From a phage: a stretch of 64,000 nucleotides of DNA. Below are positions 14,966 through 19,532 of the stretch, piece by piece. Position numbers and translations under genes: made by a program. The notes under the pieces are model-generated. The model was given only the letters and a program-made list of their open reading frames with translations, had not been told where the DNA came from and searched no databases. The stretch lies in assembly GCA_033580375.1 (NCBI GenBank), contig GCA_033580375.1_4527.1; one strand, given 5' to 3'. The stretch's first letter is position 1, and every line of letters starts with the position of its first letter.

Positions 14966-15081
14966 TTTAAATTCTCAATTCGAGATAATATTTAGTAGCC
15001 ACGTTCGTCTGAATTTCACCTTCTTTCGACAGGTCTCTCAGTTGTAGGCTACCGCTTAGAAGAGTGTTCTCTTCATATAGT

Positions 15082-15089
15082 TATTTATA
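15082..15089 (-). promoter_or_regulatory. T4-type late promoter (TATAAATA) upstream of rIII
   Basis: Minus strand TATAAATA immediately after gene 31 stop, about 115 nt upstream of rIII ATG. Confidence 0.45.
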
Positions 15090-15422
15090 TCACTTATAAA
15101 GACACGGAATAGCTTTATAGTGGCATGTTACGAATTTCTGTTTAATTTCTTTAGGTTGTTTAAGACCTAAAGCCACAAATGGATGTGGAACATTTCGAAT
15201 TTGTCCAACTGGTAGTGGAGTCAAATCACCGACTTCAACAAAACCTTCAGGAACATCAGGACCTACAGAATGAACTACACATAGTTCAGGAACTTCACCT
15301 TGAACACGTTTACCAATCACAAGTCCTGATTCGGTAACTTCTTCATCACCTGCTTGAGCGGGTTCAGAAACCAGAATGACATATTCACCAACAGCACGAA
15401 TTGGGAGTTGTACTTCAGACAT
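15090..15422 (-). CDS. 31: co-chaperonin gp31 (GroES-like)
   Basis: 110-aa ORF near-identical in pattern to T4 gp31 as recalled (MSEVQ...[16 protein letters not shown]...[11 protein letters not shown]). Confidence 0.9.
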
Positions 15423-15453
15423 CTTATTTCCTTGTTGTTTGACGATAGATTAA

Positions 15454-15478
15454 TAATACCATACTATTCGTAAAGCAT
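15454..15478 (-). promoter_or_regulatory. candidate MotA-dependent middle promoter for gene 31
   Basis: Minus strand MotA-box-like ATATGCTTTAC then 12 nt then TATTAT. Confidence 0.4.
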
Positions 15479-15479
15479 A

Positions 15480-15788
15480 TTACATAAGAAGCAAACGTTC
15501 GACCGGAGTACCATCAACCGAAATTACTTTATCAAGGCGGAAAGAACGCCACTGACCTAACTTGGTATCGAATGCTCGAACTGATTCACGAGGTTCATAA
15601 CGAACTTCTGTTGCCGGATTGTTATTTTCGTATTTGACTTCAAGTTCGTCGCGAGAAGCAAACATCGTACGAACATCACCGTTAGCCTTTTCAAATACAA
15701 CACAATGAACGCCTACAGACAGAATAGTTTTAATACGTTCACGAAGAACCATAGTTTCTTGTTCAGTTAAAATCATATTATTCACCAC
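15480..15788 (-). CDS. hypothetical protein
   Basis: 102-aa ORF between cd and gene 31. Confidence 0.55.
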   Translation of the reverse strand: MVNNMILTEQETMVLRERIKTILSVGVHCVVFEKANGDVRTMFASRDELEVKYENNNPATEVRYEPRESVRAFDTKLGQWRSFRLDKVISVDGTPVERLLLM

Positions 15789-16359
15789 AAAAGTTTCGGA
15801 TTTGTTCCCAATTCAGAGAACGAAGATTATTACGAGAGTACTGAATTACTTCAATACCAGCTTGTTTTAGAATGTCTGCCCAATTTTCAGGAGATCGGTC
15901 ATATAATTCTGCATATACAACCTTTTTAATACCTGACTGCGTAATAGCTTTAGTACAATCAGGACATGGAGAAAGCGTCGTATATAACGTAGCACCTTCA
16001 ATAGAATTACCTTTACGAGCGGCAAACAAAATTGCATTCAATTCTGCATGGATTTCATTATTAGCAGACCATGCACTATGAGCAGCTCGATGTTCTTTGG
16101 CTAAAACAAAATTATCTACCCGTCCAAATGCTGTAGTGCCTTCTTTATGTCCAGCAACGATGACTGGGATTGGTTTATTCTTCAACCAACCGTTTTCAGA
16201 TGCATGTTCGCAACAGTTAACGCCACCTGCAGGTGAACCGTTATATCCAGTAGAGATAATGCGTCCATCTTTTTCAATGACGGCACCAACTTTCCATGAA
16301 CAACATTTTGATTCTTGAGAAATCAGATATGCAATCTGAAGGTATGTGCTAGCTTTCAT
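15778..16359 (-). CDS. cd: dCMP deaminase
   Basis: 193-aa ORF (T4 Cd is 193 aa), zinc-binding HAELNAI and PCPDC motifs. Confidence 0.9.
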   Translation of the reverse strand: MKASTYLQIAYLISQESKCCSWKVGAVIEKDGRIISTGYNGSPAGGVNCCEHASENGWLKNKPIPVIVAGHKEGTTAFGRVDNFVLAKEHRAAHSAWSANNEIHAELNAILFAARKGNSIEGATLYTTLSPCPDCTKAITQSGIKKVVYAELYDRSPENWADILKQAGIEVIQYSRNNLRSLNWEQIRNFCGE

Positions 16360-17351
16360 TATTGAACCTTATTAATATAAGTTAACAGCTCTTTAGTTTG
16401 TTCCCAACTGATGCACGCATCGGTAACGGAAACGCCATAGGACATATTATCAGAAATTTTTTGATTTCCTTCATGTAGGAACGATTCTATCATAATTCCT
16501 TTGACCAAATCATTAGCTGCTAAATTTTTACCAATACCAATTTGATTGCTATAATGCCCTTCAGCGTTTGCATGGCTACAGTCAACCATTACATAATGAT
16601 TCAGACCTACTGCCCTTGCTTTGTTAGAAGCTTCTTGAATATCAGAAGAATGATAGTTCGGGCCGTTGGTCCCGCCACGCAATACGATATGCGTATTCTG
16701 ATTACCTTCAGCTTCAACAATGCCTACAGTACCATCGACGTCCATACCCATATACCGATGAGGCCAGGCGGCACTATACATCGCGTCTGTAGCTACTTTA
16801 ATAGAACCATTGGTTGCGTTCTTGAAGCCTACGCACATCGGTAGACCTGAAGCAATTTCACGATGTGTCTGACTTTCAGTCGTACGGGCGCCAATAGCAA
16901 CCCATGAGAAAATACCAGAAAGATACTTAATCGTGAATGGGTCTAATACTTCAGTTGCTAATGGAAGTCCCATACGTAGAAGTTTACGACACAATGTTCG
17001 TGCAACTATAAGACCGTGGTTCATATCAAAACTTCCGTCAAGATATGGATCATTTACAAGACCTTTCCAACCTACGGTAGTTCGAGGCTTTTCAAAATAA
17101 ACGCGCATCACTAACAGAACATTAGGAAGACGAGTTTGAAGTTCAGCCAGACGTTTGCCGTATTCAACAGCAGCAATAGGGTCATGAATTGAACAAGGAC
17201 CTACAACAATAAGTTTGCGTGGGTCTTCACCGTTCATAATCGAATTAACTTGTTCGCGATGAGAAGCCACTTGTGATGCGTAAGCTTCCGACAAAGGAAT
17301 AATCTCAGCCAGTTCTTTTGGAGAAATAAGTTTTCCGACGACAGGTAACAT
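16359..17351 (-). CDS. class I DAHP synthase (3-deoxy-7-phosphoheptulonate synthase, AroG/F/H-type)
   Basis: Signature blocks KPRTTVGWKGL, GARTTESQ, HREIASGL; metal ligands in GPCSIH, DCSHAN, HEGNQ and VTDACI all present; ATG with SD AAGGA. Confidence 0.85.
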   Translation of the reverse strand: MLPVVGKLISPKELAEIIPLSEAYASQVASHREQVNSIMNGEDPRKLIVVGPCSIHDPIAAVEYGKRLAELQTRLPNVLLVMRVYFEKPRTTVGWKGLVNDPYLDGSFDMNHGLIVARTLCRKLLRMGLPLATEVLDPFTIKYLSGIFSWVAIGARTTESQTHREIASGLPMCVGFKNATNGSIKVATDAMYSAAWPHRYMGMDVDGTVGIVEAEGNQNTHIVLRGGTNGPNYHSSDIQEASNKARAVGLNHYVMVDCSHANAEGHYSNQIGIGKNLAANDLVKGIMIESFLHEGNQKISDNMSYGVSVTDACISWEQTKELLTYINKVQ

Positions 17352-17471
17352 AACAATCCTTAGGAGATATAAACAGATTCTGATTCAACAATACCTTTAC
17401 CCGGATTAGACAGGCTAAGTTGGTAGTGCTCAGATTTATGACCATTCTCTATAGTAATGAGATAGCTCTCA

Positions 17472-17708
17472 TTATAGTGTTCCATATACTCGAGTTGCTT
17501 CAACAAGACCATCACTGCCTAATTTAAGATTAGTAATTTGGTCACCATCTTTAGGATTAACGATTATGAGAAAAGAACGTGGAGATTCTTGAATAACTCG
17601 TAATGTTGCATCTTGGAAACGTTCAGACACTTTATTGATGAGTGCTTGAGCAAATTCTTTTACTTTAATCTGAAATTCGTGTACTGTAATTGGGTTTTCA
17701 CTTAGCAT
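17472..17708 (-). CDS. hypothetical protein
   Basis: ORF-track ORF trimmed to internal ATG (MLSENPITVHEF...) with SD GAGGAA; the upstream part is an early promoter. Confidence 0.45.
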   Translation of the reverse strand: MLSENPITVHEFQIKVKEFAQALINKVSERFQDATLRVIQESPRSFLIIVNPKDGDQITNLKLGSDGLVEATRVYGTL

Positions 17709-17736
17709 TTCTATTTCCTCATTTGTTGGTAGAGTT

Positions 17737-17766
17737 ATAGTATCACAACTCCACCATGTTGTAAAC
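17737..17766 (-). promoter_or_regulatory. T4-type early promoter
   Basis: Minus strand GTTTAC-N18-TACTAT. Confidence 0.5.
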
Positions 17767-18042
17767 TTAAATTGCAAAACATTTAATTTCTTGTGAATCG
17801 AAATCAACTTCACACTGAATTACTAGTTCAGCATCAAGACCAAACACAACAATCACATGAGCCGAGCTGGGCAACAATGTAACAGACACAGAATCCACTT
17901 GGTCAGGCACCAGAGTATTCAAAACGTAGAGTAGTTCAGAGTGGACCTTAAGCTCGGTAGCAGTATCCAGCTTATCAAAGAAATGATTTGCGATAATCTG
18001 ACTAAAAACGACCTTTACAATTTCAGAATATTTAGGGAACAT
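17767..18042 (-). CDS. hypothetical protein
   Basis: 91-aa ORF in minus-strand early cluster. Confidence 0.5.
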   Translation of the reverse strand: MFPKYSEIVKVVFSQIIANHFFDKLDTATELKVHSELLYVLNTLVPDQVDSVSVTLLPSSAHVIVVFGLDAELVIQCEVDFDSQEIKCFAI

Positions 18043-18049
18043 AATTACC

Positions 18050-18274
18050 TCAGTGTACAGTATTTACTTTAACTCGAACAACAAATTGCTCGGTCGGTTC
18101 GCCTACAGGAACAAACTCTACATGATATTCGCCTTTGTAACGAGTATTCAGGTCGTTACGAATTTCGGTAAGCTTGTTGATTAATGTAGAACTCATATTA
18201 AGTCCTACTAGTTTACGAAGCATTTTGTATGCTTCATCTTCGATTTCATGATGTTTATCGTACATAATTTTCAT
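18050..18274 (-). CDS. hypothetical protein
   Basis: 74-aa ORF. Confidence 0.5.
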   Translation of the reverse strand: MKIMYDKHHEIEDEAYKMLRKLVGLNMSSTLINKLTEIRNDLNTRYKGEYHVEFVPVGEPTEQFVVRVKVNTVH

Positions 18275-18445
18275 TTAACCATTCAATTGCCTGGTCGACG
18301 TTATCAAATATACCACCGTCCAAACGTTCTTCATGCTCATAGTCCAGCACATCAATACCGAACTGTCCATTTACTAAAGGCCAGGCTACAAACAAATATT
18401 CTTTATGCTGTTCGATGGCCTCAATCACTTCATATAATCGTTTCA

Positions 18446-18446
<1 letters not shown>
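18255..18446 (-). CDS. hypothetical protein
   Basis: 63-aa ORF, overlaps neighbours. Confidence 0.45.

Positions 18447-19532
<1,086 letters not shown>

Follow-up and report, generated by a model that had tools for sequence, protein, structure and literature searches.

A 64,000-nucleotide stretch of phage DNA (contig GCA_033580375.1_4527.1; "the window" below) carries a gene for a type I-alpha DAHP synthase in which residues involved in feedback inhibition of the bacterial enzymes have been replaced. We consider it fairly probable that this is an active, early-expressed DAHP synthase that escapes feedback by Phe, Tyr and Trp and keeps the aromatic flux up during infection. We also put somewhat better than even chances on a broader reading, that the DAHP synthases of the Straboviridae are a naturally evolved, clade-wide deregulated form, in which the N-terminal arm was removed, the inhibitor-binding residues were rewritten and the new pocket has long been fixed. 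Such an enzyme could override host end-product control during infection. No description of clade-wide deregulation of the Straboviridae enzymes was found in the literature searched.

The gene itself is already known, being routinely annotated in more than 200 phage genomes, and the first-pass annotation of this DNA underestimated how well known it is. That it is an auxiliary metabolic gene (AMG) has reasonably been inferred before, by PHROGs and by a 2025 paper in which the Kanagawavirus homolog was named an aromatic-amino-acid AMG. What is added here is the Mosigvirus cassette with its repeat, the locus and clade common to eight genera, the dN/dS estimates, and the pocket substitutions.

The gene was placed by profile, alignment and structural model as follows.

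16359..17351, minus strand: type I-alpha DAHP synthase gene, 330 aa, ATG start

The first-pass annotation had reported a 330-aa minus-strand gene here, and the open reading frame was found at exactly these positions. The motifs that it quoted (GPCSIH, FEKPRTTVGWKGL, GARTTESQTHREIASGL, DCSHAN, HEGNQ and VTDACI) were all present in the translation. The four metal ligands that it named, C53, H260, E289 and D311, align with C61, H268, E302 and D326 of E. coli AroG, and are invariant across every phage and bacterial homolog examined. We used R92, K97, R99, T100, R165, K186 and R234 of AroG, with the KPRT, GARTTESQ, GFKN and LRGG motifs, as the reference for substrate binding, and all seven PEP/E4P-binding residues were present (R83, K88, R90, T91, R156, K177 and R225).

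The proposed assignment to the class I enzymes was borne out by these intact catalytic residues and by the AroFGH (I-alpha) profiles, which were matched above their curated cutoffs. The scores were 252.7 bits for Pfam PF00793 (E=3.7e-75; cutoff 25.5), 428 bits for NCBIfam TIGR00034 aroFGH (cutoff 173.2) and 455.6 bits for NCBIfam NF009395 (cutoff 343), while the scores for the AroG-specific (363.5 bits vs 568) and AroH-specific (386.5 bits vs 463) NCBIfam models fell below the cutoff. The PDB sequence match was to AroF (6agm, E=7.5e-105). The AlphaFold (AF2) model (pLDDT 92.8, pTM 0.91) was a confident (beta/alpha)8 barrel with the I-alpha decorations, as expected from the first reading. Foldseek matched it to solved DAH7PS structures (1KFL, 1GG1, 4HSO and others) with TMq of 0.94-0.96 and rmsd of 1.4-1.7 A, and to the E. 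coli and N. meningitidis enzymes with TM of 0.96 and rmsd of about 1.5 A. The alignment revealed neither a different best family nor a loss of catalytic residues. The family, the fold, the metal ligands and the KPRT and GARTTESQ motifs are common to the phage protein and E. coli AroF (6AGM), AroG and AroH. From sequence and model together, we infer that the product is a metal-dependent DAHP synthase of type I-alpha and that it is catalytically competent. PADLOC gave no match to defence or counter-defence components at E<=0.01.

By tblastn, the gene was seen in 213 GenBank phage records, 140 of them at 95% identity or more, and the usual GenBank label of these copies is 'phospho-2-dehydro-3-deoxyheptonate aldolase'. 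The protein belongs over its full length to phrog_5045 (E=2.9e-182; category 'moron, auxiliary metabolic gene and host takeover'). The Straboviridae copies of this family (for example phiC120 ORF64, Shf125875, ST0, PEi20, CHI14 and Klebsiella phage KLB31) are the same gene at the same pseT-cd locus, and this locus holds the gene in eight Straboviridae genera. Mosigvirus copies are 98-99.7% identical to the window copy, which is an ordinary member whose sole notable residue is a G6 in place of R6. Between phage genera, the overall identity is only 56-77%, and the phage DAHP synthases formed one clade (200/200 bootstraps).

Identity to E. coli AroF, AroG and AroH was 51, 47 and 44%, and the best bacterial matches were just 50-55% identical and came from unrelated phyla as well as from Enterobacterales. 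Since the phage enzymes are monophyletic and have no close bacterial donor, a recent capture from the host is ruled out, in agreement with the first-pass annotation. An origin from AroF specifically was not supported, as the phage enzymes grouped with Enterobacterales AroF in only 28/200 bootstraps.

The phage is a T4-like coliphage of the genus Mosigvirus (phiC120/JS09 group) and not T4 itself. Identity between the window and complete Mosigvirus genomes is 98.9%, and the wider flanks of the gene hold cd, pseT, gp31 and rIII; together with the locus shared between genera, this indicates a bona fide virus genome and not host contamination. The surrounding features are given below.

15778..16359, minus strand: cd (dCMP deaminase), downstream neighbour, predicted to be translationally coupled
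16357..16361, minus strand: TAATG junction, in which the DAHP synthase stop (TAA) and the cd start (ATG) share one base
16335..16362, no strand: downstream repeat copy, 28 nt, the true cd start and right-hand cassette boundary
17355..17359, minus strand: Shine-Dalgarno AAGGA, 5 nt 5' of the ATG, read directly from the sequence
17352..17471, minus strand: 120-nt spacer from cd.2 to the DAHP synthase gene, specific to the Mosigvirus cassette
17448..17475, no strand: upstream repeat copy, 75% identical, directly after the cd.2 stop, left-hand cassette boundary
17472..17708, minus strand: cd.2 homolog (78 aa, DUF7320, phrog_1504), upstream neighbour, probably co-transcribed
17737..17765, minus strand: candidate sigma-70/T4-early-type promoter, GTTTACA ... 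TGATACTAT, aligning with the T4 Pe133295 region
18446..19345, minus strand: pseT (polynucleotide kinase/phosphatase), upstream anchor of the conserved locus

The gene lies between cd.2 and cd. Its own Shine-Dalgarno sequence and its stop/start overlap with cd, both described in the first reading, could be read as AAGGA and TAATG, and the one-base overlap implies that translation of the two genes is coupled. T4 was correctly said to have only small cd.x ORFs in this interval; it carries just cd.1-cd.5 there. The DAHP synthase gene is absent from both T4 and RB69. In the window, it sits inside a 1,113-bp cassette, at about 16363-17475, that is missing in RB69 and is bounded by a 28-nt imperfect direct repeat. 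The upstream copy of the repeat is a second, decayed version of the start of cd.

A consensus scan detected no promoter or terminator in the 120-nt spacer, and on reading the sequence we saw no MotA-box or late-promoter motifs in it. In one relative, a small ORF (17360..17515) is annotated at this spacer. The annotated early promoter of T4, Pe133295, lies between cd.3 and cd.2, and its homolog is conserved about 390 nt upstream of the DAHP synthase gene. The 17737..17765 element is the likely promoter for cd.2, the DAHP synthase gene and cd.

To look at the regulatory site, we compared 24 phage clusters with 98 bacterial sequences over 350 aligned positions, counting a residue as fixed at 90% or more. 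Fixed differences were seen at only six positions (AroG numbering): 150 P>I, 151 Q>K, 155 D>G, 180 S>P, 209 F>Y and 223 T>A. The remodelled pocket residues correspond to I141, K142, G146, P171 and Y200 of the phage protein. Feedback involvement has been reported at 10 positions (review PMC9529685), and four of the six fixed differences (P150I, Q151K, S180P and F209Y) fall on them (hypergeometric P=5e-6). Q151 and S/T180 were kept in 98/98 bacterial sequences and replaced in 24/24 phage clusters, while P150, F209 and D155 are near-invariant in bacteria. Where the E. coli isozymes have the bacterial Q151, S180, P150, F209 and D155, the phage enzyme has K, P, I, Y and G. Conservation is also higher in the changed pocket (entropy 0.54) than over the whole protein (0.95), a pattern that would fit a lock in the active state and equally a pocket that binds a different ligand.

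The first-pass annotation had pointed to an N-terminus shorter than that of AroG and lacking the region for feedback inhibition, and both points held up. The phage protein is about 8 residues shorter before the conserved Pro19 (8-9 residues in comparison to the three E. coli isozymes), and there is no in-frame start further upstream of the ATG. What is absent is a stretch that helps to form the inhibitor site, as the residues equivalent to AroG 2-9 and AroF 2-10 are missing, including AroF Asn8, whose mutation leads to feedback resistance. An intact inhibitor site, with P150, Q151, S180 and F209 along with the N-terminal arm (D6/D7 in AroG, N8 in AroF), was not found. The stronger evidence for deregulation, as judged from the alignments, is the pocket substitutions and not the N-terminus alone, and these had been missed in the first reading.

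The phage changes fall at the same positions as those of known feedback-resistant enzymes, namely AroG P150L, S180F and F209A, AroF N8K and yeast ARO4 Q166K. Substitutions at these positions confer resistance in AroG (PMC9529685) and in Aro4. The Q>K change is identical to that of the feedback-resistant ARO4-Q166K allele (as reported in PMC7513737 for Hartmann et al. 2003), and in Aro4 it abolishes regulation by itself. P150I and S180P differ from the substitutions tested in AroG (P150L and S180F). AroF N8K, which loses thermostability, alters an N-terminal determinant that the phage enzyme does not have. Whereas the laboratory alleles are single mutations, the phage clade has four to six fixed changes, maintained from genus to genus, and this suggests a deregulated enzyme that was optimised in nature.

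Taken with the locus, these observations are consistent with the following mechanism. The gene would be transcribed early, probably together with cd.2 and cd from the T4-type early promoter, and its product would convert PEP and erythrose-4-phosphate to DAHP. With the allosteric pocket rebuilt and the N-terminal arm removed, inhibition by Phe, Tyr and Trp is probably impossible. Once the phage has stopped the host from expressing its genes, the host DAHP synthases would not be re-inducible and would still be feedback-inhibited. The phage enzyme, coming from a lytic phage, is presumably outside TyrR/TrpR control, and would bypass both host controls at the flux-controlling step; carbon entry into the aromatic pathway is controlled by DAHP synthase (2025 paper; review PMC9529685). 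Carbon would then keep flowing to chorismate, and on to the aromatic amino acids and possibly to folate and quinone precursors. T4 and RB69 thrive although they lack the gene, so any benefit must be conditional. In the literature searched, we found neither an enzyme assay nor a complementation test or infection phenotype for any phage DAHP synthase. Further observations count against this reading. The first enzyme of the pathway is carried alone, since no further shikimate-pathway genes occur in 50 kb of annotation whose coordinates are identical to those of the window; and the Mosigvirus copies differ at too few sites to reveal purifying selection within the genus, with one copy disrupted.

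The same pocket might belong to an active enzyme that is still allosteric but has acquired a new effector, with I141, K142, G146, P171 and Y200 re-purposed for a ligand such as chorismate, prephenate or a nucleotide. In this exotic version, the pocket would put the enzyme under a new phage-relevant effector, and the neighbouring cd enzyme, controlled by dCTP/hm-dCTP, would offer a parallel. A lost site should drift, and this one is nearly invariant among genera that are otherwise 56-77% identical; towards the former ligand site, the pocket has also gained a positive charge (K/R142) and a hydroxyl (Y200). P180/Y209 occur in a related 262-kb viral contig as in the phage clade, but together with N151 and a full-length N-terminus, suggesting stepwise remodelling rather than decay. 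However, residues that fill the cavity and stabilise the active conformation or the dimer interface should be equally conserved; the phage enzyme lacks the N-terminal arm by which host enzymes close the pocket, Q>K alone suffices to abolish the regulation of yeast Aro4, and no ligand can be inferred from the sequence. We regard a new effector as unlikely. A conventional, Tyr-type (AroF-like) feedback, with the gene serving as extra enzyme dosage and the pocket differences as lineage noise, appears improbable to us. The top matches in PDB and NCBIfam are indeed AroF-type, the Gly aligned with AroG residue 211 is of the Tyr type, as in AroF (cf. the N. meningitidis S213G structures), and D146, L179 and V221 are retained, but noise would not be expected to replace Q151 and S/T180 in every phage cluster, to gather the diagnostic sites in the feedback site, or to hit positions where substitutions give resistance in AroG and Aro4.

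The benefit may also lie outside the aromatic amino acids, in p-aminobenzoate and hence folate for td, frd and the hydroxymethylase, or in a PEP/E4P drain that re-routes host metabolism. T-even phages rely heavily on folate, and the gene sits in a nucleotide-metabolism block, next to cd and with nrdAB, td and frd at most 12 kb downstream. Cofactors and other products were named as possible ends in the 2025 paper. Against this, the interval is known to vary in its small accessory ORFs, so that adjacency to nucleotide genes may mean little, and no pab, fol or other downstream-pathway genes accompany the gene in the 50 kb of annotation. We give this a small chance; it shares its enzyme mechanism with the deregulated-enzyme reading, and the sequence level separates neither. 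Finally, a gene that is carried as a dispensable passenger, has no role at present and is heading for loss could explain why T4 and RB69 are without it, why the copy in the Mosigvirus vB_EcoM_G53 is disrupted, and why pN/pS within the genus is about 1, although the latter rests on very few substitutions (across eight Mosigvirus copies, nine variable amino-acid positions and few synonymous sites). This is very hard to reconcile with a gene kept at one locus in eight genera, intact at every locus examined but one, with all catalytic residues invariant, a long-term dN/dS of 0.15-0.23 (vs the seven other genera), some 140 near-identical intact copies, and a divergence that tracks that of the flanking core genes; we consider it highly improbable.

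The deregulated enzyme resembles, in concept, the psbA and talC genes of cyanophages, where likewise a lytic T4-like phage carries one enzyme for a controlling step. Here, however, the target is amino-acid biosynthesis in enterobacterial hosts, and the trick would be the removal of allosteric control and not mere replacement of a short-lived host protein. If deregulation is true, this would be a clear amino-acid AMG of an enterobacterial lytic phage in which the adaptive change, beyond dosage, is the removal of allosteric control. Engineering of aromatic production normally starts with a feedback-resistant DAHP synthase, and biotechnology could then make use of a variant with several substitutions that was optimised in nature and works in the E. 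coli cytoplasm. Aromatic residues make up 10.0% of the long ORFs of the window; in E. coli proteins, they make up about 8.2%.

The first-pass annotation had placed a class I DAHP synthase gene between cd and pseT as a candidate auxiliary metabolic gene. We observed that this reading frame and every motif quoted for it were present in the translation:

16359..17351, minus strand, DAHP synthase (DAHPS) ORF, 330 aa with an ATG start, read in the sequence

The gene has its own Shine-Dalgarno (AAGGA, 5 nt upstream of the ATG), and the last base of its TAA is also the first base of the start codon of cd, the dCMP deaminase gene downstream (TAATG), as had been described. Its G+C (0.43) was slightly higher than the local background (0.36-0.39); that of pseT was likewise raised.

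The protein matched Pfam DAHP_synth_1 (PF00793, E=3.7e-75) and exceeded the cutoffs of the NCBIfam aroFGH equivalog TIGR00034 (428 bits, cutoff 173) and of NF009395 (455.6 bits, cutoff 343), but missed those specific for AroG (363 vs 568 bits) and AroH (386 vs 463 bits). The nearest solved structure was E. coli AroF (6AGM, E=7.5e-105). Both the AroG/AroF/AroH family membership and the clear divergence from the E. coli enzymes were thus borne out, identity being 47% to AroG, 51% to AroF and 44% to AroH. The four metal ligands were intact, with C61/H268/E302/D326 (AroG numbering, used below unless phage is stated) aligning to phage C53/H260/E289/D311, and 7/7 substrate-binding residues (R92, K97, R99, T100, R165, K186, R234) were kept. 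The catalytic residues were invariant in every homolog examined. Structural modelling agreed, as a confident AlphaFold2 model from a 38-sequence alignment (pLDDT 92.8, pTM 0.91) superposed on the E. coli and N. meningitidis DAH7PS structures (TM 0.94-0.96, rmsd 1.4-1.7 A).

The gene is already known, as an annotation and as a published hypothesis. A megablast of window 15000-19500 matched 140 phage records over at least 80% of its length (top, Escherichia phage CCU7, 98.9% identical). By tblastn, 213 phage records encode the protein, and in 140 of these the identity is at least 95%. Phage records call it 'phospho-2-dehydro-3-deoxyheptonate aldolase', 'DAHP synthase I alpha' or 'aroF', among other names, and a DAHP synthetase domain was noted for ORF64 in the phiC120 genome paper (PMC8022965). 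The auxiliary metabolic reading had already been given by PHROGs, where the matching family (phrog_5045, E=2.9e-182) is in the category 'moron, auxiliary metabolic gene and host takeover', and by a 2025 paper that explicitly proposed this role, in aromatic amino acid metabolism, for the Kanagawavirus KLB31 copy (PMC11845039). In our literature search no enzymology, genetic work or infection phenotype turned up for any phage copy; the sole element of the present analysis not found there is the rewriting of the feedback site, which spans the clade and is statistically concentrated. In the bacterial protein search, a 98%-identical cluster (P0001) was labelled 'Escherichia coli' by NCBI, and its longest contig is phage-genome-sized (170,875 bp); such entries seem to be phage genomes deposited under the host name.

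We compared the regulatory site of 24 phage-clade clusters with that of 98 bacterial sequences (the best bacterial matches together with E. coli AroG, AroF and AroH). The N-terminus was shorter than in AroG, as had been claimed, with 8-12 residues before the conserved Pro19 in every phage protein vs 16-53 in bacteria. This shortness is genuine, since there is no further in-frame start codon upstream of the DAHPS ATG. The phage enzyme lacks entirely the segment containing AroF Asn8, whose change to Lys is listed as feedback-resistant in PMC5784704 (citing Jossek 2001). An unbiased scan of 350 aligned positions for sites fixed (at least 90%) to different residues in phage and bacteria returned just six: P150>I, Q151>K, D155>G, S180>P, F209>Y and T223>A. 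Four of the six lie among the ten positions linked to feedback in a review (PMC9529685), for which the hypergeometric P is 5e-6; against a 22-position pocket list, derived from a 28-position list drawn up before any scan, P was 1.6e-4. According to this review, P150L and D146N abolish Phe inhibition of AroG, and S180F, L175D, L179A, F209A/S and V221A give feedback resistance; Gln151 takes part in inhibition, Ser180/181, conserved across species, contacts the inhibitor main chain, and a D155 salt bridge stabilises the inhibitor site. In a gapless alignment, phage K142 corresponds to AroG Q151 and to yeast Aro4 Q166, and ARO4-Q166K is described in PMC7513737 as a standard feedback-resistant allele.

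The remodelled pocket was more conserved among the phages than the whole protein (entropy 0.54 vs 0.95), which argues for constraint and against decay. The pocket may have become a cavity that is filled and locked in the active state; that the same residues form a site for a new ligand is less probable.

No promoter-like site was found in the 120-nt gap directly upstream of DAHPS. The cd.3-cd.2 intergenic region (17765-17737) carries GTTTACA...TGATACTAT and aligns with the T4 region holding the annotated early promoter Pe133295, so early expression of DAHPS along with cd.2 and cd is probable. The best-supported reading of these sequence comparisons is an early-expressed, active DAHP synthase that would escape end-product inhibition. 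Being phage-encoded, it would also escape TyrR/TrpR repression and host shut-off, and would hold chorismate-ward flux high during infection. The feedback-site rewriting is a concrete and easily testable prediction. Aromatic residues make up 10.0% of the window's long ORFs and ~8.2% of E. coli proteins, a difference that offers a plausible rationale on the demand side. The same composition is found in T4 and RB69, however, which lack the gene, so its benefit must be conditional. Candidates for the useful product are aromatic amino acids, folate/quinone precursors, or drainage of PEP/E4P.

The nearest relatives of the window are Mosigvirus (phiC120, ST0/JS09, LF82-x), not Tequatrovirus, and the LF82-4 annotation matches it coordinate for coordinate. 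The local order is pseT, two small ORFs (at the cd.5/cd.4 positions), cd.3, cd.2, DAHPS, cd, 31.1 and 31. As had been stated, T4 has only cd.1-cd.5 in this interval, and no DAHPS. The same interval holds DAHPS in seven further genera.

Further genera with DAHPS in the same interval
Kanagawavirus: CIP9, PEi20
Kagamiyamavirus: EcS1
Marfavirus: Kpn BM7
Winklervirus: CHI14
Gualtarvirus: PSTRCR_121
Bragavirus: vB_SdyM_006
Uncultured T4-like contig

As EcS1, CHI14 and vB_SdyM_006 have a cd.1 homolog between DAHPS and cd, the order cd.2-DAHPS-cd.1-cd is probably the older one. Within Mosigvirus, RB69 lacks DAHPS and has a clean empty site (L101:7237-7255) where cd.2 abuts cd directly (cd.2 TAATG cd). 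Homology of the window to RB69 ends at 16362 and resumes at 17457; the 1,113 bp absent from RB69 are bounded by a 28-nt imperfect direct repeat (16335-16362 and 17448-17475), whose upstream copy (17448-17475) is a decayed duplicate of the first cd codons right after the cd.2 stop. This homology break and the flanking repeats indicate that in this genus DAHPS behaves like a separate cassette.

The 120-nt spacer between cd.2 and DAHPS is crossed by a small ORF that also overlaps the cd.2 end (17360..17515, minus strand; 51 aa if read from GTG, ~41 aa if read from an internal ATG). The annotation of vB_EcoM_G53 has a similar ORF of 50 aa (L015:140-292). The window ORF is perhaps spurious, perhaps a remnant of the cassette. 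Both the window and RB69 lack T4 gene 31.2 between 31.1 and cd (15480..15788, 15778..16359 vs T4 L002:3883-4119), and in the window 31.1 directly overlaps the cd end. In Providencia phage PSTRCR_121, one homing endonuclease gene lies immediately between DAHPS and cd and another upstream of the cd.x genes (L010:4490-5056 and L010:1296-2012), a hint that exchange driven by endonucleases may play a part in how patchily the locus content is distributed. About 10 kb downstream of DAHPS, beside frd and nrdAB, thymidylate synthase is annotated in the near-identical LF82-4 as two CDSs split by a homing-endonuclease gene in a td intron-like arrangement (L102:26744-28621, the same coordinates in the window).

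The first-pass view that the gene is not a recent host pick-up was also upheld. Beyond the 44-51% identity to the E. coli isozymes, the nearest bacterial sequences were just 50-55% identical and taxonomically scattered, and the phage proteins formed one clade in 200/200 neighbour-joining bootstraps. Phage and Enterobacterales AroF were sisters in only 28/200; relative to AroG and AroH, the phage clade evolves faster than the AroF group. Across genera, identity to the window copy was intermediate for DAHPS (59-77%), lower for pseT (45-67%) and higher for cd (65-84%), which fits a gene that has long been resident in the locus and has repeatedly been lost. dN/dS against seven other genera was 0.15-0.23, values that are upper bounds because dS is saturated. 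Within Mosigvirus nine amino-acid positions varied, none catalytic, counts too small for a ratio. The sole broken copy seen was that of the Mosigvirus vB_EcoM_G53, annotated as a misc_feature of 1,048 nt and matched by tblastn in two pieces (L015, MK327943.1 133134-134181).

Two IMG/VR contigs (L028 and L030; 261,788 and 26,642 bp) carry a second viral DAHPS lineage, which 160/200 bootstraps place as sister to the T4-like clade. It shares P180 and Y209 with that clade, but unlike it has N151, P150 and a full-length N-terminus; the neighbouring genes include eukaryotic-type topoisomerase IB and thymidylate kinase. DAHPS genes also occur on ~55 putatively viral IMG/VR contigs (L032-L095), mostly named GVMAG (giant-virus MAGs), and many of these bins have a type I-alpha enzyme with the normal cellular signature P-Q-S-F. 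About 13 proteins of this set are 633-682 aa; in the two examined (L057:2980-5016 and L089:2965-4965), DAHPS is fused to a prephenate dehydratase domain. Seven 'viral' IMG/VR contigs (L026, L027, L029, L033, L044, L076, L081) encode an ordinary enterobacterial-type AroF (~356 aa where complete) that shares 48-53% identity with the query and has the whole regulatory signature. These genes probably belong to the host, on contigs that are prophage or wrongly binned, and are not phage auxiliary metabolic genes.
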